A stretch of DNA of 63,331 nucleotides, the filler included, from Aduncisulcus paluster (lineage: Eukaryota), in the NCBI GenBank assembly GCA_024181965.1. It is 11 parts of 11 records of this genome, joined end to end, with 100 filler letters (N's around TTAATTAATTAA, not from the genome) between each part and the next. Parts side by side here need not be neighbours in the genome. Positions count along the whole stretch, not along the records: positions 15,678 to 36,376 come from BQXS01000110.1; 10 more parts are not named here. One strand, 5' to 3'. The notes beneath the pieces were generated by a model. It made no database searches and was not told where the DNA came from. It saw only the letters and a program-made list of their open reading frames with translations. Of the stretch, positions 7,996-51,567 are shown piece after piece. A program made the translations under genes and the position numbers. Each line of letters opens with the position of its first letter. Within the stretch, counting starts at the first letter, position 1.

Positions 7996-8040
7996 CCAAC
8001 TCCAAATCCAACTCCAACTCCAACTCCAACTCCAACTCCA
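7996..8040. repeat. (TCCAAC)n microsatellite
   Basis: About 7 near-perfect hexamer copies. Confidence 0.85.
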
Positions 8041-8397
8041 ATGCCAGCATCCGATACATTTAATACTGAGCTTTGTACTAATTAACTGCTCTGTGCTCCT
8101 TGTCTTTGGAATGTGGGGCATCTGTCATATGTCAAAGCTCTACTATAAAGAAATAGTAACTCATACCCCAAAGATGAACTATCAGTACATCCTTGAACCA
8201 CAATCAACCTACAACCAACCTACAACCAACCCCTCGCCGTGTCATATTGATTGTATCACGTGTGACTGGAATGAATGTTGCTGTTAATTGATGAGTGGAT
8301 GAATCATATTTGATCTATTTGAACACCGTTTATGTGTTGTACTTCCCCCTCCATCATTGTCATTGCCATCTCGAATACTACATTGATTGTCCCATTC

Positions 8398-10220: not shown

Positions 10221-11003
10221 TTAAGATTCTGTGATATCAAGATGAACAGGTCGTCCGTATGAAAACAGCAGTATTTTCTTCTCTCCATCGCATCCTTCGT
10301 CAATCTCAAGTGATTGTCCATCTCCTGAACGATACTGTCTTCCATCTCCTGTTGCCATCCCTTTTAAAACACATCCATGGAGTTCCTCCCCCTTTTGACT
10401 TTTATACTTATCATTTGGGTAGTGTTTTGAAGAAGTTGAATTATCTTGACTTCTTGAAGAAGTTGAATTATCTTGACTTCTCTCTTGTTCCAGGTCATTT
10501 AATGAAGGATCTGAATTCATTTTAGCTAAAGATTGTTTAGATATCGCAATGGTACTGGTACCTGTATCAGAATCAACAATAAACAATGATCCTTTCTGTT
10601 GTTTACCAAGCTGTTCTATACCAGACTGCGATTCTTTTCCCATAACCTTTGTCTCGCCCTGACTTTCACTTGTCATACTTCCACTTGTCATACTCTCTTC
10701 TCTTTCTTCTCTATTTTCTTCTCTATTTTCTTCTTCCCTTATATCTTCACGTTTAACTATTCTGGCACCATTTTCTTCATGTTTGCTGCATGGGTCCATT
10801 GCTGACTCATGACATACAGGAGTACTATCAATATCATCACGGAGAGCATGTTCATTTGCAATATCATACATTGTCTGACCATACACTGTCTGACCATACT
10901 GTGGCTGTATTATGCTATCGGAAGTTATATGAGGATCATTAATATTACTATCGATTATGTTGAAAGTATCACCATTATACATCTCATCATTATACATCTC
11001 ACC
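10221..11003 (-). CDS. Hypothetical acidic low-complexity protein, probably 5'-partial
   Basis: 258-aa ORF reaching the contig edge, with short internal repeats (RSQDNSTSS x2, REEENREE). Confidence 0.5.
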   Translation of the reverse strand, partial: GEMYNDEMYNGDTFNIIDSNINDPHITSDSIIQPQYGQTVYGQTMYDIANEHALRDDIDSTPVCHESAMDPCSKHEENGARIVKREDIREEENREENREEREESMTSGSMTSESQGETKVMGKESQSGIEQLGKQQKGSLFIVDSDTGTSTIAISKQSLAKMNSDPSLNDLEQERSQDNSTSSRSQDNSTSSKHYPNDKYKSQKGEELHGCVLKGMATGDGRQYRSGDGQSLEIDEGCDGEKKILLFSYGRPVHLDITES

Positions 11004-15677: not shown

Positions 15678-18600
15678 AAGACGAGTTTGAGTCGTTCCAA
15701 TAGATCTAATCATAATCAGGGCGAGGTGTCTGATGAACGTGATGATCAGTCTGGCGGCACAGATGCTGGCACAGATTGGTGGGAAAGTGAGGACTGGGTA
15801 ACTCAATCCTCAGTCGTGTCAAGGGAAGAAAACGGTGGTGGTGGTCGTGAGTCTATTACAAGCAGGGCTTCAATCAGCTCATTACGAAGCCAGAGTGTAG
15901 GAAGTACACATCATCATAATCCAACTATTCCTCAAACTCACCAAGGGAGTTCGGCTAGCCGGCATAGTATCGGCGGGGCCGAAATTGGTGGTGGTCGAGA
16001 TGCTGGTGCTGACGACTCTCATATTCAAGTGTATGATGGTGTTGAACGTCCCAGTATTGAGAGAAGGATGTCTGCTACTGATACTGATTTTAAGACCTCT
16101 ACTATCTTGGATCATCATCCTCACCAATCCACTACAGAACTTGTCAACATCAATAGTTCTTCTTCTTCAATCAAGAATCCCACTATGTCAGTTGTGGCTT
16201 TAGCGGTATCATCTTCCCGTGAAAAAGGATTGCGTATTCACTCTGACGGGGATAAAATTGCCACTGGAAACGGAGGCCTGATTTCTTCTTTCTCTCTGGC
16301 TATCCCCAATAACGATTCTTCACATTCTCACGATAAAAAGAAGCATGGTAAAGGGACAACCAATCCCCAATTCCCCACACGTGATGATATTATTGGAATC
16401 AACAAGGAATCATCAAGTATTAGACCTCAACCTCAGCTTCGTTTCTTCTCTTTCCGAATTTTAAAGACGCTGTTACTTTTGTTAATCATTCGTCTATGTC
16501 ACGTCTTTACATTTATATTCTACCTTATTGAAGTGCTTCGATTCTGGTATGTCTATCAATATGGAGAATCTAATGCCAAGGATATGCTCGAGTTGTTGAA
16601 GCGTAAGCATATTAAACAAATTCAAAGAGACAGTGTAAGGTATATGACTCAAAAAGTTCTCTCAGAAGATCCTGTTTCTATTCCTTCCCAACATCAAATT
16701 AACACATTATCCACGAGTTCCCGACCCACCAAGCTTCCAACATCTTCCCATACACAAACTAAGAGCAAGAGTCAACAACACCTACCACAACACTCACATC
16801 ATGGGGTACATTCGACAGGCACAGGGAATATCATCAAGAATCCTACTGCACATTCATCGTCGGGGAGATATGCGTTGCCCATCGAGAAGCCTTTTGGTGC
16901 ATCGTCACAAAATATCCTTCGACTCACGAAGGCAGATAGTAAGGATAATTATTTTGCCTACACAAATCTTACAACCACTCCCAAATGCAATGATTCTGCC
17001 TTCACGACAACGCCCAAGGATAATATCATTATTGAAGCCCGAGCTACTCCAGAAACTCTATCTTTGCTTTCATTCTTCCTTCAAGCTCCTCCTGGGTATT
17101 TCAGATTGCCCCGGAGAAGTAAGGTTAGTTCACTTTCTTCTCTCATTTTCCCTTGTCTACGGCCTCATTCCCCGGCTACGTACACATTTCTAAGTCGTCA
17201 AATTGGTCTTGCTCTTCAATACTTCTCTACCCCAACTATTATGATGGAGCCATCTTCACGTTATGTCAGTGCTGCTGGACTGCTCGGCGACTTGGAGCTT
17301 TATTCTCTCCCCAAGAAAAGCATCAGTAGGAAAAGAAAGAAGGTTAAAACCGTTGACATCCTGAGTACTGAGAGAGGCGGCAAACGTAAACAATATGACA
17401 TTTTATCTAGGAACAATGTGCTCCCATCAAGTCTCAAGTTTACTCCTCCTTCGTCTTCCTTCTCTTCAATCCCTCCAATCAGTCAAAATTCAGACTCCGA
17501 TGATTCTCATCTTTCCACGATGAACAAGGAATCTTCAACTTCCTCATCTGCTACACATAATCAGACTAAAGCTACTCCTGGAGTCATTTCAAAGGATATG
17601 ATTGATACTACACATGGTTTGGCAACAATTTCTCGAGACACTCATCAACACGCCACTCATCAACACGCCACTCATCAACACGCCACTCATGTAGCCACCT
17701 TGCATCCATCCCCTGGGAATTCCCCTGGGCATTCTCATTCTCGTTCCCATCACAGTAGTGCAGCATCCTCCCAGCGATCCTCTTCCTCCACGCCTGCACC
17801 TGAGTCTCATCCAGGTTCATACACATACGAAGGCTACTCGTCCATGTACACAACGAATGATGGAGCTCCATATTCGTCATATGGAGATAGTCATTCAGGA
17901 TCATACTCTGCCTCGTCATCTTCATCATTATCCAAACAGAATGTTAATGACCCAAGGGAAAGTACAATAATGGTACAACCTCATCTGGTTGGTACAGAGA
18001 CAGACAGATTAAGAAAGGAAGAAGGAGAAGATAGAGAAGGATGTGAGGAAGGTGAAAGAAGATCTGAGACTAAGCAAGAGCCTATGAAACCTGTCATTTT
18101 CCAATCAGAGTCTGTGTCTCACTATGCAAAGACTGATGCTTCTCTCGGAGGCACTCAGGCTCAGGCTCAAGTCCAATACCAACATACTGGAGATGGCCCA
18201 GGGACTTCTGTTGATCTCGCCAAATCAGCCAAAGATCATCTCGAAAATGTCTTTGCTCCGTTGAGAAGGAGATTGTCGGATTCTTCATCAGGGAAGCCTC
18301 CATTTGTTAACTCTCTTAACTTAGCTCGTCTCTCAGGAACAGGAACAAGCACTGCAAACCCTCTTCGTAGGTTTTCATCTGGCGGTAAAACTGTTGCTGA
18401 ATCTTCGAATAGAAAATCATCAATTTGTTCGAGAAGGATGTCAACAGAGAGTGCTGGAGATGAATATATTGATGTATTCAATCATCATTCGATGACGTTC
18501 AGTCGTGATGGGGATTCTCACGGAGGATACTCTTCCGAACACCACCCTTCACTTAATTTGTTTGATCCTTCACCAAGACAAGGAGGTCATGGTCATCCAA

Positions 18601-21600
18601 ACTCTGCTGTACATAAGTACCACGTTATGTTCTCATCCGCTGCACACAGTGGACACATGGATTCTAGGTCTCCAGCTATTGGTTGTTCTCCGCGAGACCT
18701 CAAATACGATCCCACATGCAAAGAGTTCAACAACAACAATAATAATAATAATGCTGGGAACAACGAATCATATCGAGCTCAAGCAATTCGTTCCCATCAT
18801 CCTGTGTATCCTTCTTTCTTGTATGCAAAAACTCTATTCGATTGTGAAATTGATGTGACTGCAGCTGAGTGTGTTGATGTTATTCGGGAGACCATTGCTC
18901 TTGATCGAGAGAGAAAGAGAGTGGAAGAGTTCAAGAGAACCCATCCAATGGTATTCGGGGAGGGTGTTACACATTCAAAGTCGAACTCAAAGAACTTAGA
19001 TCCTACGCCACGTTCAAGCAGAACAACAACTACTCGAACATCGACCAGTGTGCAACGAACAGAGACGACGTCTTTATCTCCTTCCGTCCCGCCCACTTCT
19101 GTCCGAAACGTTGTAGATCCCTCTCTTCCTTTCAGACCATTGATATCACACGAGAATGGCGATGTGTTGAATGGAAGAGGAAGTGGGGGTGAGGAAAAAG
19201 AACTATATGACACTACTGGTGCTCAGACTGAACAACATGGAGGAGAAGAAGAACAAGAGGCATTCTTGCATTCCCAATTGTCAGTTCCCTCTTCGCTCAT
19301 TAAGCAGATGACCATTCCTCGATTCTCCTTTTATATCATTCGTTTGTTCTTATGTGAAAGTATTTCCCAGATGTTATTTGTGAATGAATTGCATTGGAAT
19401 TGTTTATCTCCCTTTTCAATTGACTCTTTTTTGAGCCATACTAGTTCACATTCCCTGCTTAACGATGATCATAAGAAGATTCTTTTGGCTTCCTATGAAC
19501 TAATGGTTCATAAATACAATCATATCTCAACAGTTTCCAAAAATAATGCATCAACTTTGAACGATTTTCAAATGGAAGAGGAAGAAATGGAAGAATCTTT
19601 TTTCCGACAGAATTTCCTTGCAGAGATCTCGAATGAAACTCTAAGAATGGCTCGATCAGGACAGTTTAAGAAGGAGGTTATGAGTCGTTCCATTGGCAAT
19701 AATATCCGAACATGTACCTGCGATAACCCCACTTTCTTGTTGAAGGCCTGTATTAACGACTTATTGAAGTGGTTTCGACAATACACATCAATTCGTGCTC
19801 TGTTCAAACAACATTCAAGAACCTCACAACAAAAGGTCTCAAGATCGACACGAGCGGCCAGTATTAAATCATCAACCTTTGTCTGCCCTGCCACTATTCC
19901 ACAACTAACTAACCAAGAAGCTACGAAATCTGAGATCACATCAACACATCAGAGACATGCTTCACATGCTCAACATCAGAACATACCTTCTTCCATTGAT
20001 GAGACTGTTGAGTACCAACAGTTTTCATCATCATCTGTGTCTGGCCAGCCAAAAGGAACTAAAAAACCTGACGAAATATTCACACAGAACCATCATGTGA
20101 ACCCTCTGTTTGGGAGAAGAGGTATCAACACATCTTCTTTAATGCCTAACCCCCAATCACCTCTATTTGGTACCCTTGATCTCAAAGATCAGCATTCGAA
20201 TTCTGGAGAAATTGAATTATCAACTATTGTCAGTGTTGAAGAAGAGGATGAAAAGGCTACGAAATCATTTGGTGGGAATTCAAAGTCAGTCCCTGATGAA
20301 TTCGATCCCAAAATAATCGATAAAAAGGAGCTTGAGCGCCGCACCAGTGTTGCCATGTTTGGTTTTGATCCAATGCTCGATCAAAGCGGCGTTGAAAAAG
20401 ATAGATCCGATGATGTCGCCAGAATTGAATCCCATTCTTCAGAATGCATGAATAATAATAATAGCAACAGTAGAAAGTCTTCAGCTAGTAGTGCACAACG
20501 AGTTGAATCAATTTCTATTCCAGAAGCGACAAAACTATCTGTGTCTTCCTGTTCTTCTTCACATCAGAGTTCCACCACAGAGAGCCAAACAACATCTCCA
20601 TTATCGGGGGGACTAGGAAATGACAATCATCATACATCGGTGCCAACACCGTCATATGTTCCAGAAATAGCTAAGACTGTTTTCGATGTTGAGTTTGAGA
20701 AAGTCGACGAATCCGATTTCCCTGTGTGGAAGAAATCACTTCAATACCGGTTTAAACATGCAAGAAATGACTATGTATCTTGCCTTGACCAACGTTCTTC
20801 TTTCTATGAGCTAATATCGGCCTTTTCTCGTCGGATGAAGAAACTCCTGATAACCTCAAAAGAACAGCATCGTAGCCCTTATATTGATTCTTCTGATGAC
20901 TATTATTCTTCGTCACGAGGGATTTCTTCGTCTTCATCAAATGTGAAGACCTTGGAGGTATCTTGTGCCGACATGATGCACTCAATTACATCTCTAAGTT
21001 TCCAACAATATGTTACAACAAAGAGTGCCTTGAGCCGAATGATGACGCTGAAAGAGAATTTCACGCGAGTTGGTGTTTTGTCTTTGCTCGGTGGGTTTGC
21101 CCTCAATATTTGTCTCGACCCTCTTCTTTCTCAAGCTCTATTTGTGCATTGTTCCTCAATTATGCGTCAATCTCGTGTGACTGCCATCCAAGCGAAGTAT
21201 CACGAGTTAGTCAGTCAATGTCAGCCTGCTGTGGATGAAAACGAAGAGAAGAAAAATACTTTGAAAGAACTGATAAAGAAGAAAAAACAATTGAAGCGCC
21301 AATTGGTCTATTTAAGGAAGAAAAAACTATCCCAAATTAATCCTTCTAGTACTACTATTACAAATGGTTCTGCATCTATTTCTTCGGAGGTTCCTACAAT
21401 GACCAGTACCACCACCCCGCACAACAAAACCAATGGCTCTAATCTTTTCCAGATCCAAGGTGGTGACATTTTTCAGCAACAACAATATCATCCCACCCTT
21501 TCCTCCAGTAGTACAGGTGAGAAAAGCGAGAAAAGTTTGCTTTCTGATCCTTCTCCTTCCTCCTCTCTTACTTCCCATTTCGTTTCACATTCACTGAGTG

Positions 21601-24600
21601 GTAATGAAAAGACTGATATTCCTCATAGCGGTATGGATAATAATTCACTCCGTTCATATTTCTTTGGACGCACTGGTGGCCATCTCAGTGTTGCTCATGA
21701 GAGCGATGAGCTGGAAGGCCTTGTAAGTGGGAGAGATAGTCGTATTTTGGATAGCAGCGAACACACTGGAATTAAAAATATGTCTTCTCAGACAAGTATC
21801 TCCTCTGCCACTCATTCAGACTATTCTGTTAGTAGCTGTATAAGTTCTCATCCAGAGTACGACGAGGAAGAAGAGAACGATGAGGAGGAAAGTTCATCTA
21901 ATTCAGAGCACACAAAGAAAGTTTTTGCGTCCATGCTTGGAAGGGGAACCAAATTGAACTCTAATCGTCAGACTCCCACTATGTCCCAGCCTCCCGATGT
22001 ACATAATTCCTCAGAAATACACACTGAACCTGCCCAATCCCTTTCCTTAACTGGGAAAAAGTTCGATTCGTCCATCATGCCTCCCCCACCTTCCCATTCC
22101 TCACATGGTCTGTTTAGTGCTCCATCAGACTGGAGAACATCTTCCTCCCCTTCCCAACAACAGTACAGGTCATTATTCTCTCCCCTTGATCACACTCCAC
22201 CAACTGATTTTGCTATTAAATCTCATTACATTACTGATTCTCAACGTCATCATATGGATAATATGCTATCTAAGTATGGAAGCCTTGGACCTACTATCGA
22301 TGAGGACGACAATCCATCACAATTAGTTGGGTTAAGGACTGATGCAGTGGTTGTATCTGGTTTGGGAACAACTCATCTTGTAGAACATCAACACCATTTA
22401 GCTCAACCTGGATTTATTTCTTCTTCTTCTCACGCGCAATCAATTCCCAATGCTCATCGTGGTTCCTCAAATATGTCAAGCGATGTTCATTCAGACACTG
22501 CAACGACTGAAAAGATTGATTTATCAAGCCAAAAGGGGAACACTGATCCAGGTCAACAACAAATTGGTCATTCAGATGGTAGGTTACCGCTTTCTTTCAG
22601 AGTTAACTCCGATTCATATCTCAGTGATCATTCTTCTATGTCCAGCAATACACCCATTCAATCTATTATTCGACCAGATGGGTCAAAGGATAATCTATTC
22701 CTCAAAATGCATGGAAAGTCTGCCCTTGTATCTGAGAAATTTGATCAAGATGATGCCGATAACTCTTCTCCCACTCTCTCTTCTCCTTCCTCTTCCTCCT
22801 CTTCCTCTTCTTCTTCTTCCTCTTCTTCACTTGAGGATCTCCCACTCTCACTCTCACATAAGTCTATTTTTCCTGTGTCCAACAAAGGTAAACACAACTT
22901 AAATAACAAGACGATGAAGGAAGGAAGTCAACTTATCCCGTCATCCTCGGAACAAATACCAAAGCCTGATTTCTCAAGGACTTTGGGTGCCGTCTCTTCT
23001 CAACCTTTCTCGTATCAGTTTGGTACCGGTATGCCGGCTATAATTGGAATTGAGAAAGATATCTCCTCTGATGTATCTCAGCTTCAGAAAGGAGAAACTG
23101 AGTATTTTTTCAAAGATGAAGCCTCTGATACCGCTGAAGAATCTGAAGATTTCTCTGTTTCTTCTGATGAAAAACCTTTATCTGAAATTTATCAAATGAT
23201 TGTTAGACAAGAAACTAAGCATATTATTGCACTTTTGTTTGAAAGGTGTTGGGTTCCAACGCCCTCTCTCTCGATTATTCAGGATAAGGATGAAGAGGAG
23301 AGACAATTGTTGTTGTTAAAACAACGACAACAACGCAAACAATCTTCGAGTCGCCACCATTCATCAAGATACTACTCAAATAATCATGACCAAGAGAGTT
23401 GTTCTTACAAGACAATGACTTCACATTCTGCTCATATTTCCTCGAAATCACACAGTACAGCTGTGAACGGCAATGCTAATTCAATTGAGGAATCTCTAGA
23501 TATGTCAAAAACTATTCCAATGGATAGTCACAGTGACATGGCCCATTTTGAAGCAAAGACCGCTGCAAATGTAGGTATTGATAAGACGTTTTTCCATGGA
23601 GAATTAGCTTTACGTCATTTCCTCCCTTCTTCTTCATCTCCTCCTCCTCTTCATCATGAAAGCGGCGGATTATTAAATCCTTTAAGCTGTGACAGTCTCA
23701 CCAATGATGAGAAGGACATGCCATCTGCAACTCTTAACAAACCTAATCGTTTTATTATTGAGGCTGAAACTGAAACTGAAGCTGATCGTAGCACACCTGA
23801 TCTCATCCATGAAACTATCTCTTCTTCCGGTCAATTGACTTCTTCTTCTTCGGAAGGGGAAGGATCCACCGAAATATCTTCATCCACTGATGGTTCTGAA
23901 GATCCAAATATTTTGAATGTGTCTGGATCATTCAAGGTATCATCTTTACCTTCTCAAAGTCCAAAAATAGCCAAACGATCCACCTTGCAAACTTACTCCA
24001 AATCCCCCGGGCGTCGACTCCTTCCCAGTGGTTCTCCTCCTCTTCCATCTGGCGGTAGTTTCCAAGGACAATTCCGGCATTCTAAAATATCCCCTGGAAA
24101 AGATTCAACATATCCTTCTACTCTCTTCCAGAGTGACAGCTCCTCCACAACTGTGAGTACGTCTAGGTTCTCCTGGTTATCAGGTGAAGCTGGACGGTCT
24201 AATCACCAAAAGAAACATTTCCCGTTCAATGGTGATGTGATTATAGTAGATACTGTCTCAGAAAATGAGAAAGATGACACTGTCACTGATGACACTGGTG
24301 TCAGTATTGAAGGGAAAGGAGTTGAAGCTGACAGTGAAGTCTCAAATCCCTCTAGACATTCAGATATGGTTAACCACGACTATCATGGCCATCCAAAAGT
24401 TAGGAGAGGAGGAGAGTATGAGAGTGCAGAGTTGGTAATCCCAAGCAAAAGAGCTCAAGAGCTGCAGTGGGAAAAGGATAGAAGACGTGCGATGAAACAC
24501 ATTCGACTCCAAGACATTGAGGTGAATCCTCTTGTCATGAATGATGCTGTTCGTGAATACAACAAATCACATGCTCATGAAAGCAAAGCATTGAATTATT

Positions 24601-27600
24601 CACATTCAATGTCTTCAGCGCTGCCTGAGACCTTTGATAAATCGAGCAGTAACGGAACATCTCTTAACAGCATTGATGAATTGTCAGATTTTTCGGTAGT
24701 GCATCCTCCTTTGAAGAATGCTATAATCTTCAGAGATACCAATGAAGCCCATCTTGCTCGTGTTCAACCGTCTGCTTTGTTGCAGTTTGTGTTTGATTCT
24801 GTTCCCAATTTAAAGCCACACATGACTGAAAAAATGATCAATAGTTTCAAGAAATACGTCCTTTTGGGTACTATTTCCGCGTTTATTTTATCAACTGTGG
24901 CAGTTTTATTGGTTCATTTATTCAATTCTGCCATTTTAATCTTCAATAGTATTGCTCAGATCAGCTTACAATCATCTTTGATATCGGCACAATTGTTATC
25001 AAGTATGAACCTACTTTATATGCACCAAGACGATGTTCTTCAGAGCAGAAAGATCACAGAGTTTACAACAAAGACAAATGGTAGTTCTTATGTTTCTCTT
25101 GCTTCACAGATGTCTGATGGTACTCTACTACTCGATGACAATGATTTTAATGATTTTAATGATTTGATTGGAGATGNNNNNNNNNNNNNNNNNNNNACTT
25201 TATATGCACCAAGACGATGTTCTTCAGAGCAGAAAGATCACAGAGTTTACAACAAAGACAAATGGTAGTTCTTATGTTTCTCTTGCTTCACAGATGTCTG
25301 ATGGTACTCTACTACTCGATGACAATGATTTTAATGATTTTAATGATTTGATTGGAGATGATTATTCGTCATCTGTCTCAGATAATATCCAAGTGGCTGG
25401 CGATGGCGGATATATTTTCTATGTTCCTTTCCCTGATGCACATGTAACCACATCATCAATAGTGGAGAAGCTTGGCAATAGCGTGTCTTCTGTCTTGAGC
25501 TTTTTGAAAGGAATTTTCCAAGGGTTGACACAATATCAATTTGGCAATAATTCCCATGCTATTGAACAGAGTATATTCTTTGCCAATCCTTTTTATGAAG
25601 ACTCAGCTCTCAACTCATTATTGGTATATGGTGAGATCCCAGCTGACTCCGTTATCACTGTCTCTTTTGAGGATATTGAGCGGTCATCATGGCCCTTCTC
25701 CAACTTTGAGTCTTTGAGTTCTACCCTCGATAAAAAATGGTTTAGTCATATCAATAATTATATGAGTCTATTTAATTCATTTTCATTAAGCAGTAGCTGC
25801 ACTGTCTCCTGTGAATCTGTTGATACTAACGATGAGTCAGCCATGAGCACAACAGACGTGTTTATCGGAGATGCTAGTAATAGTGCAAATACTGTATCTA
25901 GCAACTCCAATAAGTATACTGAACTTGAGGATCCTTTCTCGTTATCTGATTCTCAGAGCCAAATGTTTGATGTCACCACCACAAATTCCACAACGATGGC
26001 TGCCAAATCTACTGGGTTTGGTGACAGTTCGGGTTTTCTATCTTCCGTTATGAATACTGATTTGACTACCCCCGGTAACAACTGCATTGTTAACTTTAAT
26101 CAATGCACACCTTCACTGCAGAATGGGGAACTAATCTCTTCATATGTACCTTCTGATAGAATGGCTGAAAGAAACAATGCTAAAACCAAAACACACCCGT
26201 TGGTGGAAGAACTATCTATCGCAGGTAAATTACAATATCTATCACCCAATTTCTCTTCAATATTTGTATCATCCGTGAACTCACCTTACCTTCAACAAAA
26301 CGAAACAGATGGTGGGACCTTGTATGAGCTTGTTCTTCGCGATATCGTTGAAGTAATCAAGAGTACCGTGTACATTGATGCCATTAAGCAAACCTTAGAT
26401 GTTGATCCCGACGCGTTATTCAATCCTGGTCAAATGATGGAGCTGAACGCCGAAATGAATGTGATGCGTCATATTACGTCAGATACACATGATATGATGA
26501 GAGCTTTGTCAATGCCAATTGAGAATCTTGTTACTGGAAATGGTTTGTTCGGTTGTGCTCTTTTATTGTTGCTCGTGTTTTTCATTTATTGCATATTGTT
26601 ACTCTCTTTGTTCATAAGGAATCACATGTCGCATATTTTTAGATTTGAGAAGAAATTCAAAAACACTGTTGTTTTGTTCTCTCTGATTCCTCCTGAAGTT
26701 TCTCAAGCTATTAGATCCTCATACCAAAATATCTTACCTATTTCTGGGAATATTGACACCATGCTCAGCAAAGAATATCCATTGTTTCATTATTCAGATA
26801 GCATTGACGCTGCGGCCAAGATTATGTTGCTTAGTGGGAAAAATATTGACGCTGATCGTGAATTAAAGAAACTTGACCTTCTTCGAGCTCGAGTGAAAGA
26901 AGAAGAAGGAGAAATTGATGATCTCTTAAAAGAAATCGAAGGTATCAACCCCTTTAGCTCCCTTGAAGACATTCAGGATGAGATGGACAAAGAGCTAAAA
27001 ATAGCACGTGAGAAAGAAGCAAACGATCAGGGCAGTCAACATCCTAGCAGATCATATAGTTCTGAAAACACTTTCTCTCTTTCTTCAAACAAACGGGCCA
27101 ACTCTCATGATGCTTCTTCCGTACAGCCAGCTTCCCACGATCATGATGACCTCAATGCTAACACTATCTTGATGAAATACAATTCTTTGCTGGATGTCAG
27201 AAAAGAAGGTTCTGTTGAATTCTCCGATGATCTTTCACATTCCATTCATGAGCAATTCATCCTTCACCCTTCTGCTAACATCAGTGTTGTTGCTAATAGT
27301 GGTAGAAGTCACAAGACTACCAGGACAGCTACTACTGGACCAAACCATAGCAAAAGAGGAACAATTGATCGTGATGGGAATAGAATGAAGCATTTTGATG
27401 ATCACTTCAATCCTCATGGGATTGGAGGCAGTGCCAGAGGCAGTGCAAGAAGTAGTGGAAGGGGGACTTCTTCCATATCTCCATCCTCTTCCTCTTCTTC
27501 TTCTTCTACAGAGTCTTCTTCATTCAGAGGAAAAGATATGGCAGACAATATTGCTGAACCTAAAGGTCGTCCCCGTGCTGCATCAATTGTTGAGCTTGAT

Positions 27601-30600
27601 ATTGAGCAAGAGAAGGAAGGAATAGTTTCTATGATGGTTGGCAAAGAATTTGAGGAGGAAAATGGTAAAGGTATGTTAGAATTCAAACAAAATCCCAATC
27701 AACTCTCGGTGTCAGGTGATGAAGTTGATGAATACTCTATCAAAACTGAAGATTCTGAGGAATCATCCTCAATATATCGAGATCACAAACTTGATGTCCA
27801 AGAACTCGGGAAAGGGAAAGAGCAGCCTTGGGAAGAGCATGGACAAGAGCATGTAAGTGTCAGTGTCAGTGAAGACCATGTTCAGGACCAAGATCAGACT
27901 CTGGATGGAGATCTACACGTAGATCAAGAGGAAGAAAGAATATCCGCTATTTGTAATGTAGATGTCACAGGAGGTGAGCTGTTGTTTGGTACTGAGATCC
28001 ATCAAGTTCACTCGATTTCGGCACAAGGGATGAACATTTTCCTACCATCTGCCTCTGACGAAGGCTCAAATCCAGGATCATCGAGTGGAGACACTTCGAT
28101 TGTTCCATTATCACCGAGATCCCTCAAGAAGATCAGCAATGATTACTTCTCTGATATATCTGACTCTTCTTTGCCCACCACAACCAGAAGCAGAAGTGAC
28201 AATGATATTCAACACAATGATATTCAACACAATGCTCATGGTCATGGTCATGGTCATGCTTCTAGTATGAGAGTTGCTGAGGTTGAAGAAGAAGAGGAAG
28301 AAAAAGTTGATTCTGATTCTTTCCAACGGTTCTCAAAGCTCATTGCAAACCTTAACAATGAAAACGATCCAACGAATAATTCCAGATCACCAAAGCCCCG
28401 TGGAATGTCAACTGATACTCTATCTGTGACATCATCCCAGTCTCATGGCTCTGATTCTTTGTCTCCAAGAGAAGCTAGGAAGGTGAGAGCAAGCAGTGGT
28501 AGAGGACAAAAAGAAGAAGTTAACCAGAACGGTGATCGTTCCTCTGATTCAAGCAAAGAAGAATCGCCTTACTTGCGTTCTTTAACCAATCTTCCTGACA
28601 TTCCTTCCCTTCGATTTCTTGAAGCAAAAAAGCTTGACGAGGAGTATGACAATGAAAAGAAAGTCACCGTTCGATTAAATTATTCAGAGTCAGAGTCAGA
28701 TTCTGGTTCTGGTTCTGGTTCTGCTCGTGATAGACGCGGTGAACGTGATGGACGCGGTGGTGTCGATATGAAAGAGCCAACAACAAAACATGGGATTGTT
28801 GATCACGGTAAAATTGAACAGGAATCTCATGAACTTGTGAGTGTGAACCACCAGACCAATGTTGACGAGACGTCAATAGTTCCATATGATCCGGAAAAGG
28901 AAAGTATGGATTCAGAGTCTTGGGGCGAGTATCTTGCTGATTCTGTTGCCTCATTCTCTCGTCTTAGTCAAGTATCCCAGTCTCATGGCTCTGATTCTTT
29001 GTCTCCAAGAGAAGCTAGGAAGGTGAGAGCAAGCAGTGGTAGAGGACAAAAAGAAGAAGTTAACCAGAACGGTGATCGTTCCTCTGATTCAAGCAAAGAA
29101 GAATCGCCTTACTTGCGTTCTTTAACCAATCTTCCTGACATTCCTTCCCTTCGATTTCTTGAAGCAAAAAAGCTTGACGAGGAGTATGACAATGAAAAGA
29201 AAGTCACCGTTCGATTAAATTATTCAGAGTCAGAGTCAGATTCTGGTTCTGGTTCTGGTTCTGCTCGTGATAGACGCGGTGAACGTGATGGACGCGGTGG
29301 TGTCGATATGAAAGAGCCAACAACAAAACATGGGATTGTTGATCACGGTAAAATTGAACAGGAATCTCATGAACTTGTGAGTGTGAACCACCAGACCAAT
29401 GTTGACGAGACGTCAATAGTTCCATATGATCCGGAAAAGGAAAGTATGGATTCAGAGTCTTGGGGCGAGTATCTTGCTGATTCTGTTGCCTCATTCTCTC
29501 GTCTTAGTCAAGTTTCAGTGAGAACAAGCGTATTTTTAATGATTGTGTCTTTCCTTCTCGTTCCTATTGGTTTTGTATGGTTTTCTAAACAATGGTATCA
29601 TTATGAAACACAAGTATTCGGTTCATTGGATGATTTCTCAGCCATTTCAACAATTAGAGCTGCCTCAGCATTGTTGTTCTACTCTATATCTCAGACAATA
29701 GTCTCTCCTTTAATTGCTGCTCATGGTAGTGATTTTGTCAACGATTTCATTGGTGTCGGATACGAAATTGCCAACCCTTCAATGATGGATATGTACCATC
29801 AATTGTCCAATCTGTCAGTGAGTTTTCTTAATCAGGCCCTTGATCTCCAATCTTTCATCTCTTTTCGTGAATATGGTGATAAACATCCGTATTTTTCTTA
29901 TTCTAAGAGTTTTTGGAATCAAGCAGAACCATCTGATTCTTCCATGGCCTTTTCAGATAAAAGATCTTCTCGTGCCGTATTTAACAAGTGTTTCTCTCTG
30001 TTAGATGGGATTATAGTAGATTTGCAGTCGAAATCCATTGAATCTGGAGAGATTGATCGTGCAATTGAATATATTCTTGATCATTCCAAATCTCTTGCGC
30101 TAATTGGTGAAGAGCTGACCCAACTAATCAACAAAGCTTCAAAGTTTGACAGTAGAGTTGGATTAAAAGAAACCGATTTCAATGGCATTTTGTTATCCCC
30201 TTCTGGAATTATGTCTCGTTCTGGAACACTTAGCCAATACTTTATTCCTGACCTTGAAGCATTTTCTGATAACATTTCTGTTCCTAATGAACTCGTAGAT
30301 ATCTCTTACACTTTCACTCCACTCGTAATCCTTGGTATTCATGTCATTGGCATTGTTGTGGTACTTGCTTGTGGAATTATTGCTGCCGTTTTGGTCGAGC
30401 GTAATCGTGCAAGGCTTCACAAGGCCAAAATGACCATTCGTTTCTCTGATCTCGCCGAATCTGTTGAATCTAACAATTCTTTGGAATTTATTTCTGGCAA
30501 GAAAATGTACAGTGACAGGTTTCTTTGCTCGGTGGGTGAAGGAGTTCATTCCCTCAATTCTCGATGTTATTGTCCTTGCGATTATAGGTTATTGTGGTTT

Positions 30601-33057
30601 ATTGCGGCAATTGCAAGTAGCGTTGCTATCATTTTCTTTTCATTTGTCCAGAATATATCCGTCTTCGCTGAGCTTGAGAATCGATCAATGGTACCACTTC
30701 ATCGTTATCGAGATGTTGTCATCACTGCAGAGGCCTTGAATTCAATGGTAGGTGCTTGGATGGCTACTCTAGATGCAGAATTGACCTATCAAGATAACTG
30801 TTTCTCTCCTAACTGTCCCAGTGAAATAGAGATGAATAATATGATAACCCGAATGTTTGAAAGCGTTGTCGTACCTTCAAAGCTTGTTAATCAGCTTTCT
30901 TCAGACTTGGTTGACATTCTTCACACATCTTTGAGTTGGTCAAATATCTCATACGCTTTTCTTGATACCGTTTCCAATTATTCTCTGAAAGATATCAGTG
31001 GCTCTGATGTCAAAGTCAACTTATTTCCCCATTCTAATTTCTTCTCACAATCTATTCTTATCGCTTCCTTGAATTTATGTGATCTTAATGTAGATTCTGA
31101 AGGTGATTATACTCTGGCTTCTTGTAACTTAATCACCGAGAACATTCTCAATTATTCTTCCTCAAATGATTTGATTGATTACAGCTTAATCACGAAGGAT
31201 AGCATTCGATCTGTATTTTCAGATATGTATGATATAATGACTGTCCAATCAACAGCTTTCCAGGATATAATCTTCTTCTCTTCGCTGAAACAATTTGGCC
31301 TATTATCCAATTCTAACCAAACAGATTTGCTGGCTTTGATGTGTTCTATAACCATCTTCACGGGATTTTTCATCATTATGCGTTCTATTTGCATGATTTC
31401 CAGTGGTATTTCCCAGCTTACCGAAAAAATTACATCTTCAATATGGTATGTCATGAAAGCTCAGTACAATTTCCTCATTAGCATTCACCAAACTGGTAAA
31501 GGCGATCCATCTATGCAAAAATCAGCCTTTTTGCAACCTATTGATGCAAATAATTCCCACATGCAATCTATTCTTGCTCCTTCAGAGAATGAGACAAATG
31601 TCCATAAAACCAATTGTACAAGAGGTCCCAGTGAGGTCGTTGCTGAGAAAGAGAAGAAGTATGATATGGTTAGATCTGTATATTTCCCCGAAGAAAGTAG
31701 ACTAATACAACAGCAGTGTATCAAGATAGATATGTTTCCATCTAGTATTACTTCCCGTACATTAACTCATCGTTCTTCTTCATTGCTTCCCCACATCGAC
31801 CATGAGCAATTTGATGATTATTCCAGTGTCAGTGCCAATGTCAGTGCCAGTGTTATTACTGGAGGTGCCAGACACAAGAATAAGACTGATGGACAGAAGG
31901 GTGGTATATCTTCCATCAGCAACTCTGTGCCCATTTCTTCTTCTTCGATTCATATTGAAGCCAATCACAAAGAGAAAGAAAAAGAAAAAGAAAAAGAGAG
32001 AGATAAAGAAAAAGAAAAAGAGAGAGATAAAGAGAGAGATAAATCACAGTCTCATATCATTTGTGATGTGACTGTCCTTAATGATGATATGAGTAGTGAA
32101 GCTGAAATCGATGATATGATGTCAAAGAATAATCACAATCTCCCTCAAGATCTTGCATGTTTCTCTTCAGATCTTTTACGTGAAGAAATTCAATCTCGAA
32201 GCGCTCTATTGAAAATTCCTCCGAATGTTCCTCTTTCCAGGCTCAAAATGTTTACAGTCCTAACATTTTCCATATTACTCATCTTCCAGGTATTTAATTC
32301 GATAACATTTGTGTATCAATTTTATAGAGCAAGGAGTAATTTCTTGCTTTCTGAAGAATATGAAAGGGTGTCCAATCTTGTAACTTCCATTATTAATCAT
32401 ATTTCCTTTGAAGCTATTGAGAATTCACCTAATAACATTGTTAGTGAGCACCAACCAAAGTTTTTGCATGATATGGTCTCCCATTTGGAATCAAAACTTC
32501 AGAAAACTTTTATCAAAATAGAACTTGTCGATTTCCATTGTCCAGAACATTATGATGAATTATGTGAGGAATGGAAGGAAGAATTCTCAATTCTAAATTT
32601 AGATGATGAGAATCATATCACTTCACGAGTTTTATACACCTTTTTGAACACTGCAAATTCATTTATTGACCTCCAGTATTCTGATTATGAAAGTGAAGAG
32701 ACGCACGAGGAATTAATTTCAATGATGAGTAAGTTTGTCATTGAAAGTCACTTGGTTTTGCAGTTTTTCTCAGGACAAATGGATAGATCGCATGCTGTTT
32801 CAGTCAATGCTATTTTGGTGATGACCTGGATTCTGGGTGTCATTGTTTTTGAAGCTATTATTCTAAATATAGTACATTATTGTATTGTTTGGTTAATGTC
32901 ACACAAGATTCGAGAAATGGACGTTGGATTGCAATTTATGGGTTATTTGATTCACAAATCATGGCTCGAGCCGTTCGGTCTGCATGGATTGTTCCAATCA
33001 ATCATGGAGCAGTCAAATAGCGATGAAAGAGTCAACTGGAACAATGATGAAGATTAA
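15678..33057 (+). CDS. Giant Ser/His-rich multi-pass membrane protein of unknown function (at least 5500 aa, 5'-partial)
   Basis: The 3193-aa and 2629-aa ORFs join in frame once the duplicated overlap at gap 25177-25196 (offset 184) is collapsed. Paired hydrophobic segments flank luminal-type regions and alternate with long low-complexity stretches. Confidence 0.8.
28434..29513 (+). repeat. Identical in-frame tandem duplication of 540 bp (180 aa)
   Basis: 28434-28973 matches 28974-29513. Confidence 0.92.
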
Positions 33058-33309
33058 AAGAGTGTGTTCGTCATAAGTAGAGTAGATTTTTAATAAAAAT
33101 TGGGCTATTTTATCATTTTTATTATGAAGTTTCCGCTCAGCATAATCTGATCTAAGTCGCAAAATAAATATCAATAAAAATAATAATATATTATAATTTA
33201 CCCCGATTTTCCTTGTAAAAAGCCAATTATTAAGAATTCAAAGAAAACAGAATTGATTTTCACTTTTTGTCGTGAAATTAAATTTATTTGAGTATTTTTG
33301 TTTATTATT

Positions 33310-36300
33310 ATGGTTAAATATATAAAAGTTGTTTTTATTGGAGATCATGTAGCTGGAAAAACTTGTTTGATTAATCGAATAGCGAGAAAAGAGTTTCCCA
33401 AGTCTCCTCCGACTTCTACAGTTGGTATTAACTTCGAAACCAAAGAAGTTCCTTTATATGATATTAAATTAAATATATATGAATTAGCTTGGCAGTCAGA
33501 GTTTGATACATCCCTTATGACTGGGTGTCATGCCGTTCTAATTGTATTTAGCGTTCTAAAAGAGCAGTCTTTTGAAAATGCGAAGGAAAAATATAAATTA
33601 TTGTTGAAAAAATATCGACATGACCTTGTTGTTGCCCTTGTAGGAAATAAGATTGATCGTGATTCTGAACGTGTCGTCTCCCGACACACTGCCGAGGAAT
33701 TTGCTAGCAATAATCACTTATTATATTTCGAAACAAGTGCCAAAAGTGGTCATAGTGTCGCAGAAATGGTCAATAGCATCTCTCAAAAATGCCTTATTGT
33801 AAAAAATTATACTTTGTGTGATTATAGCGAAGGAATCCATCCATATTATCGTCCTGATCCTGCAGACAAATACATTGGACCCTTTATTGATGACTCTTTA
33901 AAGTGTGTTGTTGATCTTGATAAAGTTAAGTCTCCCGAGTACACCCAACCTAAACTTATTAAGTTCTTCCAAAATAAGGCCACTCTGACATTTACAGCAG
34001 ATTTTCCTGAACCCAATTTAATGATTTCATTCGTTGAACCCCATATTATTGGCCAGGTCTGGATTAGTAGTCAAAATATTCCCACTGGTTTAAAAGCCTT
34101 CTGTATGAATTTTACAACGGTCGATGGAAAAGTTGAAACATATTATTATTCCTCAGATTCGGCTATTCCGCCTAAGTGCTTTTTCTGGGGTAAATTCTAT
34201 CTTGATACACCAGTCCCGATTATTTCATGTACTCTTCAAGTTCTCTCCCCCTCTATGAAAGAAAAACAAACAAAGGTTCAAATTCATGCCATTCGTTTTG
34301 TTATAGACCCTCGAAAAGAAGAACAGAGAAGGGAAGTGCAAAAACGAGTAGAAATCCAACGATTGATGGGTGATTTCATAGCTGATACCAAAGCAGATAT
34401 GATAAGGATTCGAGAAGATTTATCTGCAACCAGAAGAGCGTTAGACATGACCAATCGCCAACTCCACGATGAGATGGAGATGCGACTTATGTTAGAAGCT
34501 GAACTTGAGACAGAAAAGAAATTTCGAAGATTGGATAGAGAAGAATTTGAGAAACATCTCGCCTTAAAACAGACACAGATCGATTCACTATCATGTAAAC
34601 TCGATAAGCAGAAACAAACCTCTGAAACCAATAGATTACAACTCGTATGTAACATTAGATCTCTTCAACGTGAATTATCTTGTGTTTCTGATCGAGTTGC
34701 TGGAAAGACACCGCTATTATGTGATAATGTTACCAAAAGATACGATAAAATTCTATCTCATCGCGCCTCTGTTCTTTCTCCGTTGGGTGAGTATGTTGTT
34801 GTCAGTTGTGATATTGATTCGATGAGTTCCAAATTGATGTCGAGCGTTCCTTGTTCACTTTGGCACAATACTTTGTCTTCAAACTCTTTTCCTTCAGGTG
34901 ATGCAATATTTGGTATTCTGAGTATGTATAGAGCTTTACAAGATGGATATCACGAGGGATCTATCAGTGGATTAATTCACAATATTCATGAGAGTATCCG
35001 TCATATTACATTCAAAATGATTGAACTAGGCAAGAAAATGCATTTATATTCCCTCGATCATCCCCAACCAACCCATTTTGCTTCACCTTCTGCAATCGAT
35101 CATGAAAGATCGCCTGATTATGTTTCTTCTCCCCAGATTGATGTTGTTAATGACGACTCCACATATGGAGAAATATCTCCCCAAGACATTGTTGCTCAAT
35201 GTATGGTGAAGATATCCCCGATACCGTCTTCGAGGGAACTCATGGAACGTGTTAGAATGCTTGAGAAAATTACTCAGAATGTTGCTCCTCACGTTAGTGT
35301 ATCTAATGTGCAATGTGTAGTTAATCAAGGGGAAGCATGCATCAACAGTGTCGTACCATTCTTATCTTTCATTTTTACTGGAGATTCCAAGACATACGCA
35401 ACTCCTAATATGCTATTATCTAACAGAGATCGTATGAGTGCTGGAATGTATGTCTGTTTGCAAAAATATGTCGCCAAAACTAAACGTTTCAACGATATTG
35501 TTAAGAAATTCAATTTTATTTCTTCCAGAGGCGTTGATTTGTGTGATATTGAAGGGAAATGTTGGAGCGAACGTATTTCTTCAATTTGTCCAAATTTTGA
35601 TTTCCTCCTTCATTCACTGAGTTCAATGAAAGATCTTTCAGACGATTCTTGTGATGATTCTTGTTGTTATAGCAACCAAAAAGATGTCCAAATAGATGAC
35701 AAATTGGGGATTGGAAAAGAAGATGAAAGCAGATTTGATGTTTCAACAACTCGTGGTTTGTCCACAATTTCTATTGATAGTATCATTCACATGCCCTTAC
35801 CGCCTTCAACTCTTCCTCCAAGGCAACCATCGATATCTCCTTCTTCTTCTAACACTTTCCCAACATTTTCCCAGGTCCAGAGTTCTTCTTCTTTCGCGGA
35901 TAAGGGACTTCTTGCAACGATGCAGTATAAATTTTCGACCATGACCTCGCCACCGATATCCACATTACACTCTCAACACACGAGCACGATGACATCACTC
36001 CATTCATCGCTGTCCAACTTATGTCAGCTCATCTGTTCACACGTTTCCAACTGTGTGTCTCAAGGATCATGCACGGATTCTAAGCTTGCGAGTCTTCAGT
36101 GTCGTGTTGAAGGCAAGAAGTGTGATGATGCGTTCATCAAGAGTGCAAGTCTTGTTGAAGCCGAGGAACATGTGACAAAGCAATGTGAAGATGAATCGGC
36201 CTGTTTGAACGATCTTTGCAAGCTTCTGTGTCTTGATGGTGTGTTCATGTGTTCTTGTACTTATCCTTCGCATGAGTCCGTTGTGGAAGAGATCATCTCG

Positions 36301-36376
36301 ACGGTGTCGTCTGTGCTGGACATGCTGTGTGTGTACATTGCCATGGTCTGTGAATTCCACGAAGCATTGTGTTTGT
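33310..36376 (+). CDS. Atypical Rab-family GTPase fused to a beta-rich module, a coiled coil and a long helical C-terminus, 3'-partial
   Basis: G1 GDHVAGKT, G2 STVGINF, G4 NKID and G5 ETSAK are present; G3 reads IYELAWQ instead of IWDTAGQ. A module similar to the A/B repeats follows, then a charged coiled coil (EEQRREVQKRVE...LQRELS). Confidence 0.85.
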
Positions 36377-49735: not shown

Positions 49736-50003
49736 NNNNNNNNNNNNNNNNNNNNNNNNNNNNNNNNNNNNNNNNNNNNTTAATTAATTAANNNNNNNNN
49801 NNNNNNNNNNNNNNNNNNNNNNNNNNNNNNNNNNNTATTGGAATGGGATTACATATGATACTATCAAGTTGATAATTAACACTCAATACCATGAAAATAA
49901 ACCTGTCCTGGTCACAAAACTTGGAGAACTTCTCATTGAGAAGACTGACACGCAAGGAATAAAAGCACCATGTCATTTTGCAGGCAATATCATTATCCTT
50001 GGA

Positions 50004-51098
50004 TTATTTCCATGGAAGTAGAGATAATCGTTCAGGTGCAATATATTCCTCTGGAATGGCAATAAATACAAGGGAAGAGATGTGGAAAGCTCGACTATTC
50101 TTCTCAGGCCACGTTCCTTTCCCTTCAATCTCACACAAAAGGACGTTATCCAAATTAATAGGAAGGAAATGCCATTCAATTCCATGTTTAGGTCTTGTAA
50201 ATTCATACTTCTTGCATGTCTTCTTATCATCACAATCAGTGAAAGTGAAGAGAAGAAACGGGGAACTATTATACGCATCCACACAGATATAAGCCCCTTT
50301 CATAGGACTAGGTAATGGGAAAGGGATGGAAAGATGGGATAAAGCGACAAAAACGTCCCCTTTTAACATTCTTTGTGCTCTTGAACTCTGATCATACCAC
50401 TCAGATTCCTTACAATACGAATCATCCTTGCCCTTAACCATTGAGAATGAAGGATCTACAAGCTTTGGATCATCACGCAGAATGGGAATAGATTTTATAC
50501 CACCTTCCTTAATAAACTCTGCTTTCACAACTGGAGTTTCAGACCATAGTTTCTCTCTGGCTTCATGAGATGTGATTTCTTCAGGAGTTTCTTTTCTACT
50601 AATAAAAACAAGGGAGAGGATATTAAAACACTCTTTCTTTCTTCCTTTCCCCGTAATCTCACACAGAACAACATCAGGGAGATCAACAGGAAGGAAATAC
50701 CAACGATATCCTTTAAATTCAGGAAATTCGTATTTCTTGGATGTTTTCTCACCCTTTGAAGATGTGAGAGTGAAGATAAGGTGTGATGGAGGTAAAGAAT
50801 TAGTAACACCACTTAGACAGATATAAGCCCCTTTCATTGGGGAAGATGAAGAGAAAGGAATGGAGATATGGGTAAATTGTCCATAATTCAACTCTCCTTT
50901 CATAATCTTTTGTGCTTCAGAACTCAGATCGTACTTTCTATCACCTTCTTCCTCGGTTCCATCAATTGCTTTGATTGTTGGAAATGCTGCACTCTTAATA
51001 TTGGGGGCATCTCGAGGAATTAGACAGCAACTCTCATCTCCTTCATGAATAAACTCAGGTTCCACGGTTTGAATAACAGCATCTGTGGATGAACTCAT
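50004..51098 (-). CDS. Stand-alone two-module (A-B) member of the repeat family, 364 aa, no kinase
   Basis: Complete ORF starting MSSSTDAVIQ, highly similar to the modules in 336-7442, with a homologous upstream region. Confidence 0.9.
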   Translation of the reverse strand: MSSSTDAVIQTVEPEFIHEGDESCCLIPRDAPNIKSAAFPTIKAIDGTEEEGDRKYDLSSEAQKIMKGELNYGQFTHISIPFSSSSPMKGAYICLSGVTNSLPPSHLIFTLTSSKGEKTSKKYEFPEFKGYRWYFLPVDLPDVVLCEITGKGRKKECFNILSLVFISRKETPEEITSHEAREKLWSETPVVKAEFIKEGGIKSIPILRDDPKLVDPSFSMVKGKDDSYCKESEWYDQSSRAQRMLKGDVFVALSHLSIPFPLPSPMKGAYICVDAYNSSPFLLFTFTDCDDKKTCKKYEFTRPKHGIEWHFLPINLDNVLLCEIEGKGTWPEKNSRAFHISSLVFIAIPEEYIAPERLSLLPWK

Positions 51099-51123
51099 TT
51101 TGAATAGAGATGGAATATCTTAT

Positions 51124-51341
51124 CTAAAAAAAAATAAAAACAAGCAGAATAATATTAGTATTTGTGAACAAACGGAATGAATGCGAATTTCAAGGAGAAC
51201 AGTCCGAGAAACAAAGACAAAACTAACAAAACGAATAAGAAACGACCACACAGCGCAATATAGTGAGTATAATTGAATGAATCCGGTTAAAATATTTCTT
51301 AATATACATTTAATAAAAGATGCAACATATAGTAAACATAC
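51124..51341 (-). other. Putative 218-nt 5'-leader intron, homologous to 7467-7562
   Basis: Conserved GTATGT donor and poly-T-TAG acceptor. The 122-nt length difference between the paralogues lies entirely inside this interval. Confidence 0.55.
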
Positions 51342-51567
51342 AATTTGCTTGTTTGCCAAGAAATCGAAAAAATGGAGGACTGAACAAGCAACCCTTCAAT
51401 AGATAAGATTGGAAATTTAAAAAAACACATATAAACGAGTTAAATGCTGGTAAATGATAAAAACATGNNNNNNNNNNNNNNNNNNNNNNNNNNNNNNNNN
51501 NNNNNNNNNNNTTAATTAATTAANNNNNNNNNNNNNNNNNNNNNNNNNNNNNNNNNNNNNNNNNNNN

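Follow-up and report, generated by a model that had tools for sequence, protein, structure and literature searches.

A Rab-like GTPase of Aduncisulcus paluster followed by a distant homologue of kinase-linked tandem modules

We analysed a stretch of 63,331 nucleotides (nt) from Aduncisulcus paluster, a free-living fornicate flagellate related to Giardia; this whole stretch is called the window below. At 33310..36376 (+) it holds an open reading frame (ORF) for a large Rab-like protein (1022 codons, no stop, open to the contig end, C-terminus missing). An N-terminal Rab-family GTPase domain is followed in this protein by a predicted galactose-binding-like (discoidin/DOC-like) beta-sandwich module and by a charged, probably helical stretch. 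Profile comparison shows the predicted sandwich to be a true, distant homologue of modules, termed A and B, that stand in tandem arrays ahead of protein kinase domains. The reading that we favour, with good confidence, is that of a multidomain Rab-like protein in which such a distant homologue was joined to the GTPase by a derived fusion and would act as a recognition scaffold.

The window consists of about 11 A. paluster contigs chained by joiners of 44 N, 12 bases and 44 N. Its base composition fits that of the draft genome (39.1 % GC). In total 25 runs of N were counted, and those of 20 N are gaps internal to scaffolds. Because the contigs are concatenated by joiners, arguments from neighbourhood across a joiner are void. 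The Rab-like gene lies on the piece at 15678..36376, and two genes on other contigs served as comparators. The first (336..7442, -; piece 1..11003) has ten A/B modules followed by a protein kinase domain, with two 20-N gaps inside. The second (50004..51098, -; piece 49836..51467) encodes a protein of two modules, A followed by B, which lacks any further domain and ends in the tail ERLSLLPWK. In the kinase gene, peptide stretches are partly duplicated across the gaps at 1625-1644 and 5322-5341; owing to this duplicated flanking sequence, the count of ten modules may be off by one. The preliminary description of this DNA had spoken of a system extending beyond a single gene family. The module does stand beside varied domains, but the three compared genes, on three different contigs, are members of a domain family and not a locus or a demonstrated functional system.

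Homology of the Rab-linked module to the A/B modules

The Rab-linked module covers amino acids (aa) 184-338 (33859..34323, +, hmmsearch envelope), that is 155 residues, after a linker of about 20 residues behind the Rab domain. Four of its motifs had been paired with motifs of a B module in the preliminary description: LMISFVEPHIIGQVWI (aa 237-252, nt 34018-34065), FCMNFTTVDGKVETYYY (aa 264-280, nt 34099-34149), FWGKFYLDTPVPIISCTLQV (aa 292-311, nt 34183-34242) and VQIHAIRFV (aa 323-331, nt 34276-34302). Their B-module counterparts are in the ORF at 1583..5446 (-). All four pairs were found at these positions, and the same pairing was recovered by hhalign when four Rab-linked copies were aligned with the ten window modules (score 34.9, probability 62-65 %, E 6e-5). 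Reversed profiles, used as controls, scored 13.7 and 14.1. The mean score was 13.1 for 150 column shuffles (standard deviation 2.6, maximum 21.9) and 15.8 for 150 block shuffles (standard deviation 3.5, maximum 31.8), and the real score was reached by 0/150 in either case.

Further members were found with phmmer, by which the Rab-linked segment gave 11 matches at E ≤ 0.001 among 1.84 billion representative proteins. Four of the 11 are Rab-linked paralogues (E 1e-40 to 3.5e-32), and six are short Rab-less proteins with a single copy of the module (P0015-P0020, E 1.6e-11 to 1.3e-7). Exact look-up assigned nine of the ten newly found matches to A. paluster, and the eleventh, P0003, is also from this species. 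P0021, from a JGI metagenome, contains a repeated ...DGSVE.YYISDGTVW... unit and matched over 32 residues (E 2.2e-4); it was not confirmed by the hidden Markov model (HMM) of the family and was therefore put down to chance. The Rab-less proteins look intermediate between the two module types, with FTTSDGKKITKEY, FWQEFPIDxDNVISC and LHLPF as examples.

With these sequences the relation became clear at the profile level. A profile of the 13 Rab-linked and Rab-less modules matched the window A/B modules in hhalign with a probability of 97.1 % (E 5.4e-11), and separately built alignments gave 96.6 % (E 6.1e-10, 119 columns). When the 13-module profile was run by hmmsearch over the 311 ORFs of the window, all 12 A/B modules were matched (independent E-values 4.7e-11 to 6.8e-3). 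B copies scored better than A copies, and the next ORF was noise (E 0.17). In the opposite direction, an HMM made from 321 array modules alone found the Rab-less single-copy proteins (E 1e-17 to 1e-11) as well as the modules of Rab-linked paralogues (P0002, 1.2e-8; P0014, 2.4e-4; P0012, 1.1e-3; P0013, 1.9e-3; P0003, 4.7e-3). A profile-profile comparison had been set beforehand as a check on the relation, with the lack of a significant match as the refuting outcome; a significant match was obtained (E 6.1e-10 to 5.4e-11). The segment had been described as a diverged copy of the same module. Its homology holds by profiles (96.6-97.1 %), but it is not a copy of B and belongs to a separate single-copy subfamily.

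Identity between Rab-linked and A/B modules is 13-20 %. The two types are in register: F, W and F never vary, and P, T, K, Y and C hardly do. They also have in common a C-terminal tail, [IA]ERLS[LM]LPW[KL] (the PW tail), located directly after the last module. It ends 29/146 proteins, of array as well as single-copy type, among them the window protein at 50004-51098 (-), P0023, P0046, P0052, P0054, P0066, P0067, P0076, P0078, P0100 and P0132-P0146, and is absent where a kinase or a helical stretch follows the module. Present in both types, the PW tail is an independent feature that backs their homology; it may be a docking or sorting peptide.

Several results weigh against the reading given above. 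Pairwise BLASTP of the Rab-linked segment with one B module was not significant (E 0.26). Nor was the segment detected by the HMM of the ten window modules, whose sole matches to the ORF were noise in other parts of it (E above 2). The HMM of 321 array modules likewise failed to pick up the Rab-linked copy of the window at E ≤ 1 (noise floor 0.025). By these comparisons the link of the window copy to the A/B modules is transitive, through profiles that include the bridging paralogues, with every step significant. The failure of BLASTP and of the narrow array HMMs, the low identity and the fact that galactose-binding-like sandwiches are very common would all suit a convergence of two unrelated beta-sandwiches, produced by chance and a common strand pattern. 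We consider such a convergence very improbable, given the unbroken series of significant matches by which paralogues from this organism link the two types, the far lower scores of reversed and shuffled profiles, the residues in register and the PW tail found in both types, and the confinement of the family to one species in the searches made.

The fusion and the degenerate GTPase domain

The fusion of Rab domain, module and helical stretch is real, since the three parts are bridged by contigs of two sequencing runs and recur in the same order in five further proteins. A single contig spans 33200-35983 in run X1 and 33285-35982 in run X2, each with 0 differences and no joints; the two runs come from one sample, possibly the assembly's own source. 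Rab followed by the module was also found in P0002, P0003, P0012, P0013 and P0014, all on other contigs. The draft genome is highly fragmented (25,863 contigs, N50 4.6 kb, 39.1 % GC; PMC9933649), the tail of the ORF lies within a repeat and Rab-less module-helix proteins exist; a neighbouring Rab gene and a module-helix gene might on these grounds have been merged by mis-assembly or ORF read-through. The chance of such an artefact seems almost negligible, because neither a stop nor a frame change separates Rab from module, one contig per run (of the one sample) crosses 33285-35982 without joint or difference, and the five proteins on other contigs have the same order, one of them as a tandem pair. 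In this protein, P0002, the Rab-module pair occurs twice ahead of the helical stretch. P0013 displays a long charged helical N-terminus at the position of the Rab domain, of which only the C-terminal half remains.

The GTPase domain (aa 6-161; 33325..33792, +) matched Pfam Ras PF00071 with E 6.7e-32 and 110.7 bits, compared with a cut-off of 21.6, and the match spans the whole G domain. Its closest solved relatives are Ypt51/Rab5, Rab26 and Rab1 (E about 1e-20, best 60 of 193 PDB matches); IFT27 is not among these best 60. The nucleotide-binding motifs G1 (GxxxxGK[ST]), G4 (NKxD) and G5 (SAK) are all present and intact: the P-loop GDHVAGKT at aa 11-18 (33340..33363, +), NKID at aa 113-116 (33646..33657, +) and TSAK at aa 142-145 (33733..33744, +).

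The G3 motif of switch II, DxxG(Q), is degenerate. Where Rabs have WDTAGQE, the protein has YELAWQS (33478..33498, +), with Asp replaced by Glu and Gly by Trp, and in the alignment ELAWQ stands against DTAGQ of Ypt51 and Rab26. No letter of G3 differs in the contigs of runs X1 and X2, so ELAW is not an assembly slip. Since DxxG is lacking, the protein was classed as Rab-like and not as a canonical Rab. This agrees with the earlier wording of an atypical Rab, the more so as paralogues P0003, P0012 and P0014 retain DTGG or DTSG at G3. In GTPases of the Ras family, G3 acts through its glycine, which touches the gamma-phosphate, and its aspartate, which holds the magnesium-bound water. From these roles we infer that a tryptophan at the glycine position should block the normal change of switch II, while the paralogues with DTSG or DTGG may still be able to switch.

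The module is followed by a charged stretch nearly without Pro or Gly (aa 339-470; 34324..34719, +), which is kept in paralogues and aligns with P0002, P0003, P0012 and P0013. Between aa 337 and 462, E, K, R, Q, D and L make up 57-69 % of residues, with 0-1 Pro/Gly per 42-residue window. This composition is what points to a long helix: these roughly 130 residues are probably helical and might form a coiled coil. A conserved block after it (34720..35034, +) is common to paralogue P0002 up to aa 575. Over aa 11-575, the window protein (P0001) is 38 % identical to aa 364-961 of P0002 (BLASTP, E 9e-117).

Family, predicted fold and possible function

The extent of the family was assessed by two profile searches. 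Among proteins of 526-2000 residues, 104 matches were obtained, all from A. paluster. A kinase accompanies the modules in 42/104, no Pfam domain in 54/104 and another Pfam domain in 8/104 (AAA, leucine-rich repeat (LRR), MSP, nitroreductase, P-loop/ABC-like, chromo, importin-beta-like and PF18930); this search depended on shared words and did not pick up the Rab-linked proteins. The single-copy profile (proteins of 77-1068 residues) gave 38 matches, again all from A. paluster, with a Ras domain in three and none in 35. Most of these are complete proteins of 165-200 residues that start with MRIIGK. A derivation of this N-terminus from the last Rab helix, as a relic, was considered and dropped (hmmsearch E above 1). 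Altogether 382 modules were delimited in 117/126 proteins collected, with 1 to 8 apiece. The family is large (at least 146 proteins) and was seen in A. paluster alone in the searches made. On metagenome contigs, 592 pattern matches were found and 0 were confirmed by tblastn, a weak negative as only two peptide patterns were used.

The preliminary description had proposed that one scaffold is found on a kinase, on a small GTPase plus coiled coil, or on neither. The census bears this out: the module occurs by itself or together with a kinase, a Rab-like GTPase, an AAA ATPase, LRR, MSP or another domain; it is the coiled coil that two periodicity tests, given below, left unconfirmed.

Phylogeny separates the family into two deep branches. 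In a tree of 334 modules (48/382 were dropped for covering fewer than 110 profile positions), seven Rab-linked and six Rab-less modules split from 321 array modules (support 1.0; branch length 3.06 substitutions per site). Within the former, the Rab-linked modules formed a clade (support 0.988). A second tree was made of seven Rab-linked modules, 35 single-copy modules and, as outgroup, 40 randomly drawn array modules. In it the Rab clade (0.99) was nested within the single-copy type, as sister to P0018/P0126 (0.80). The two branches are an array type, with 1-8 copies per protein and with or without kinase, AAA, LRR or another domain, and a single-copy type, mostly stand-alone proteins of about 190 residues with a helical stretch in some members. 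Since the Rab clade is nested in the single-copy branch, the fusion is derived, with Rab added to an existing module-plus-helix protein.

The Rab-linked module was modelled by AlphaFold as one helix and eight strands, with a predicted local distance difference test score (pLDDT) of 89.7 and a predicted template modelling score (pTM) of 0.83. A B module model reached 85.5 and 0.82, respectively; both were built from alignments of the same 18 sequences. With Foldseek and VIA-align, the same structures came first for both modules (Z 10.4-12.2), namely the F5/8 type C domain 3nng, the DOC domains of APC10, CUL7, HERC2 and HECTD3, the muskelin discoidin domain, IFT25/HSPB11 and CBM32. Z was 12.2 for 3nng_B (root mean square deviation 3.3, 135 residues), 12.0 for the CUL7 DOC domain and 11.4 for APC10. 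When Foldseek was bypassed and 48,161 representative chains were searched, all of the best 50 matches had the galactose-binding-like fold. In the ESM Atlas, the closest clusters that carry a name are F5/8 type C (score 0.94). Secondary structure of the Rab-linked and B modules agreed in 109/135 aligned columns, compared with 35-58 % when shifted. Both module types are confidently modelled as the same eight-stranded galactose-binding-like (discoidin/DOC) sandwich, with the 18-sequence alignment common to both models; a different predicted fold, named in the preliminary description as a refuting outcome, was not obtained. UniRef names array proteins P0052, P0066, P0070 and P0085 'NudC domain-containing'; no CS/NudC structure was among the fold matches listed, and the name was not adopted.

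These analyses also yielded points that count against the favoured reading. The likeness of the two models is partly by construction, since the same 18 sequences entered both alignments. No solved family stands out, all Z values being tied within about 1. At E ≤ 10, the 18 members had no match to a Pfam model (discoidin, DOC or other, including PF00754 and PF03256), and the profile of the 18-member alignment found 0 PDB sequences. As the Z values are tied and no Pfam or PDB sequence matches, the fold gives no specific function. For the charged stretch, the 3.5-residue hydrophobic periodicity had z ≤ 1.8 and the observed a/d contrast was reached by 27/300 shuffles, so that a coiled coil was unsupported by either test, both of them crude. 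Moreover, the C-terminus of the Rab-like protein is missing, and its last 140 codons or so lie within a repeat.

A Kyte-Doolittle scan detected no transmembrane-like (TM-like) segment in the array genes of the window, and none between modules and kinase. Within the reading of a Rab-like recognition scaffold, the sandwich would offer a surface that recognises a protein partner inside the cell, as do the DOC domains of APC10, CUL7 and HERC2, muskelin and IFT25. The surface is placed inside the cell because a cytosolic GTPase beginning at residue 1 precedes the module and because the window array gene lacks a TM-like segment. Cytosolic members of the galactose-binding-like fold (DOC, muskelin, IFT25, PITH) bind proteins. 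The helical stretch might dimerise or tether, the Rab domain would bind guanine nucleotide, and this ELAW Rab, probably without the normal GTP-driven switch, would be a constitutive binding platform and not a timer. Taken together, a recognition surface, a helix tether and a non-switching, nucleotide-binding Rab platform make up a tentative mechanism, to which we give clearly less than an even chance. It is improbable, though conceivable, that the jelly-roll is an obligate intramolecular partner of a Rab with a decayed switch in a one-chain counterpart of IFT27-IFT25 docked on a coiled coil, and that the wider family, through its PW tail, forms a species-specific docking code by which kinases, Rab-like GTPases, an AAA ATPase and free modules are gathered at a common receptor or cell structure.

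The module might instead be a lectin or glycan-binding domain of the CBM32, discoidin or lectinolysin type, by which carbohydrate sensing would be passed to kinases or to Rab. Indeed, CBM32, fucose-binding and F5/8 type C structures score equal to the best (4uap_B, E 4.2e-4; 7d29, Z 12.2; 3nng_B, Z 12.2), a further point against a protein-recognition scaffold, and the nearest named ESM Atlas clusters are of this kind. The partners of the module are cytosolic enzymes, however (Rab, kinase, AAA), and a Rab domain that starts at residue 1 leaves no room for a signal peptide ahead. The window gene has no TM-like segment between modules and kinase, the module matched no CBM or discoidin family in sequence, and the cytosolic DOC, muskelin, IFT25 and PITH members of the fold score equally well. 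A glycan-binding role is therefore rather unlikely.

Another explanation, quite unlikely in our opinion, is a single-chain analogue of IFT27-IFT25, in which the Rab domain packs on the jelly-roll and the helix corresponds to the IFT81/74 coiled coil, the whole being a nucleotide-insensitive adaptor for flagellar or vesicle transport. IFT25 (2yc2_A, 2yc4_B, 8ruy_R) and human HSPB11 (1xpw, 1tvg) rank with the top structures for both modules (Z 10.3-11.4). According to PDB entry titles, IFT25 was solved in complex with a Rab-like GTPase; here Rab, sandwich and helix are in one chain. Against this analogy, IFT25 shares its rank with dozens of DOC, discoidin and CBM32 structures, the Rab domain is closest to Rab5/Ypt51, Rab26 and Rab1, with no IFT27 among the best 60 of 193 matches, and 35/38 proteins of the single-copy subfamily have no Rab.

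The IFT25-IFT27 pair is one of the nearest known counterparts. It is likewise a jelly-roll paired with a Rab-like GTPase without a lipid anchor of its own adjacent to it, and is associated with a coiled coil, as may be the case here (PMC10505919). The fold match is Z 11.0-11.4. The pair is made of two polypeptides and the Rab-like protein of one chain; the Rab here is nearest to Rab5, Rab1 and Rab26 and not visibly an IFT27 (best 60 of 193), and most relatives of the module are without GTPase.

Domains of the DOC/muskelin type (APC10, CUL7, HERC2, HECTD3, muskelin) resemble the module as galactose-binding-like sandwiches of about 150 residues (Z 11.3-12.0 over 123-138 residues). They are intracellular protein-recognition surfaces within multidomain signalling or ligase proteins. 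No relation was detected at the sequence level (Pfam, none at E ≤ 10; PDB profile, 0), and the Aduncisulcus family was seen in one species only. No DOC/muskelin-type domain is known to us that is joined to a Rab or multiplied in tandem ahead of kinases.

Large Rabs such as CRACR2A/Rab46 and RASEF/Rab45 also place a Rab inside a long multidomain protein with long helical stretches. Two of them, P0009 and P0010, were the only matches of the N-terminal 345 residues from outside Aduncisulcus, and they matched through the Rab domain alone. Large Rabs carry a prenylated GTPase at the C-terminus, behind EF-hands, whereas here the G domain is N-terminal (860 residues before the ORF end), is followed by a beta-sandwich and has a degenerate DxxG. 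The tandem GTPase EhRabX3 (5c1s_A) is comparable to paralogue P0002 in having two GTPase domains. The A/B tandem modules of the Aduncisulcus kinases are homologous to the Rab-linked module, with the same core residues and strand order; they form a separate deep branch of arrays, unlike the Rab-linked type, which is present in single copy and is followed by the charged helix and not by a further module, a kinase or the PW tail.

In the literature search, no paper linked Aduncisulcus with discoidin, and none of those listed described, by title or abstract, a single chain in which a galactose-binding-like domain follows a Rab; for Aduncisulcus with 'Rab GTPase', only one ESCRT study appeared, as a listing entry. 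The module family goes unmentioned in the genome announcement (PMC9933649). The fold is known; the lineage-specific discoidin/DOC-like family has neither a Pfam model nor a solved relative by sequence, and we rate its Rab-sandwich-helix architecture as new. A free-living relative of Giardia has built a large private signalling set from one ancient fold, with several hundred copies of the module. The architecture joins two folds that are otherwise known to meet only as separate subunits (IFT27 and IFT25). More than 140 'hypothetical proteins' can now be annotated with a defined domain, cell biology gains a candidate pseudo-GTPase scaffold, and the short PW tail lends itself to direct tests.

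Further features of the window

No Pfam family was found on aa 336-1022 of the Rab-like protein (E ≤ 0.01). The Ser/Cys-rich tail of its ORF (35950..36376, +) lies in a high-copy repeat, where the assembly is ambiguous. From nt 35950 up, the summed contig depth rises from 1267 to 30,000-55,000 in run X1 and from 284 to 700-2000 in run X2, about 25- to 40-fold. This part of the window is covered only by contigs of 60-200 nt, with loose ends at 35950 and 36089, and blastn revealed no second copy of the repeat elsewhere within the window. The Cys-rich tail is encoded by the high-copy repeat and may not belong to the Rab-like gene.

A hydrophobic stretch of 19 residues (Kyte-Doolittle 1.75/1.76/1.73) recurs after the modules in array-type proteins (P0033, P0038, P0081, P0082, P0084, P0087, P0088, P0090, P0093, P0097, P0098, P0101-P0103 and P0108). 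It could be a conserved transmembrane or core segment. The scan is too crude for membrane calls across the family, in which 54/146 proteins have a segment of 1.6 or more.

Upstream of the Rab-like gene, two giant ORFs of 3193 and 2629 codons occupy 15687-33057 (+). Neither had a Pfam match at E ≤ 0.01. They are separated by a 20-N gap alone and are probably one gene of about 5800 codons, with Ser-rich low-complexity stretches and internal duplications.

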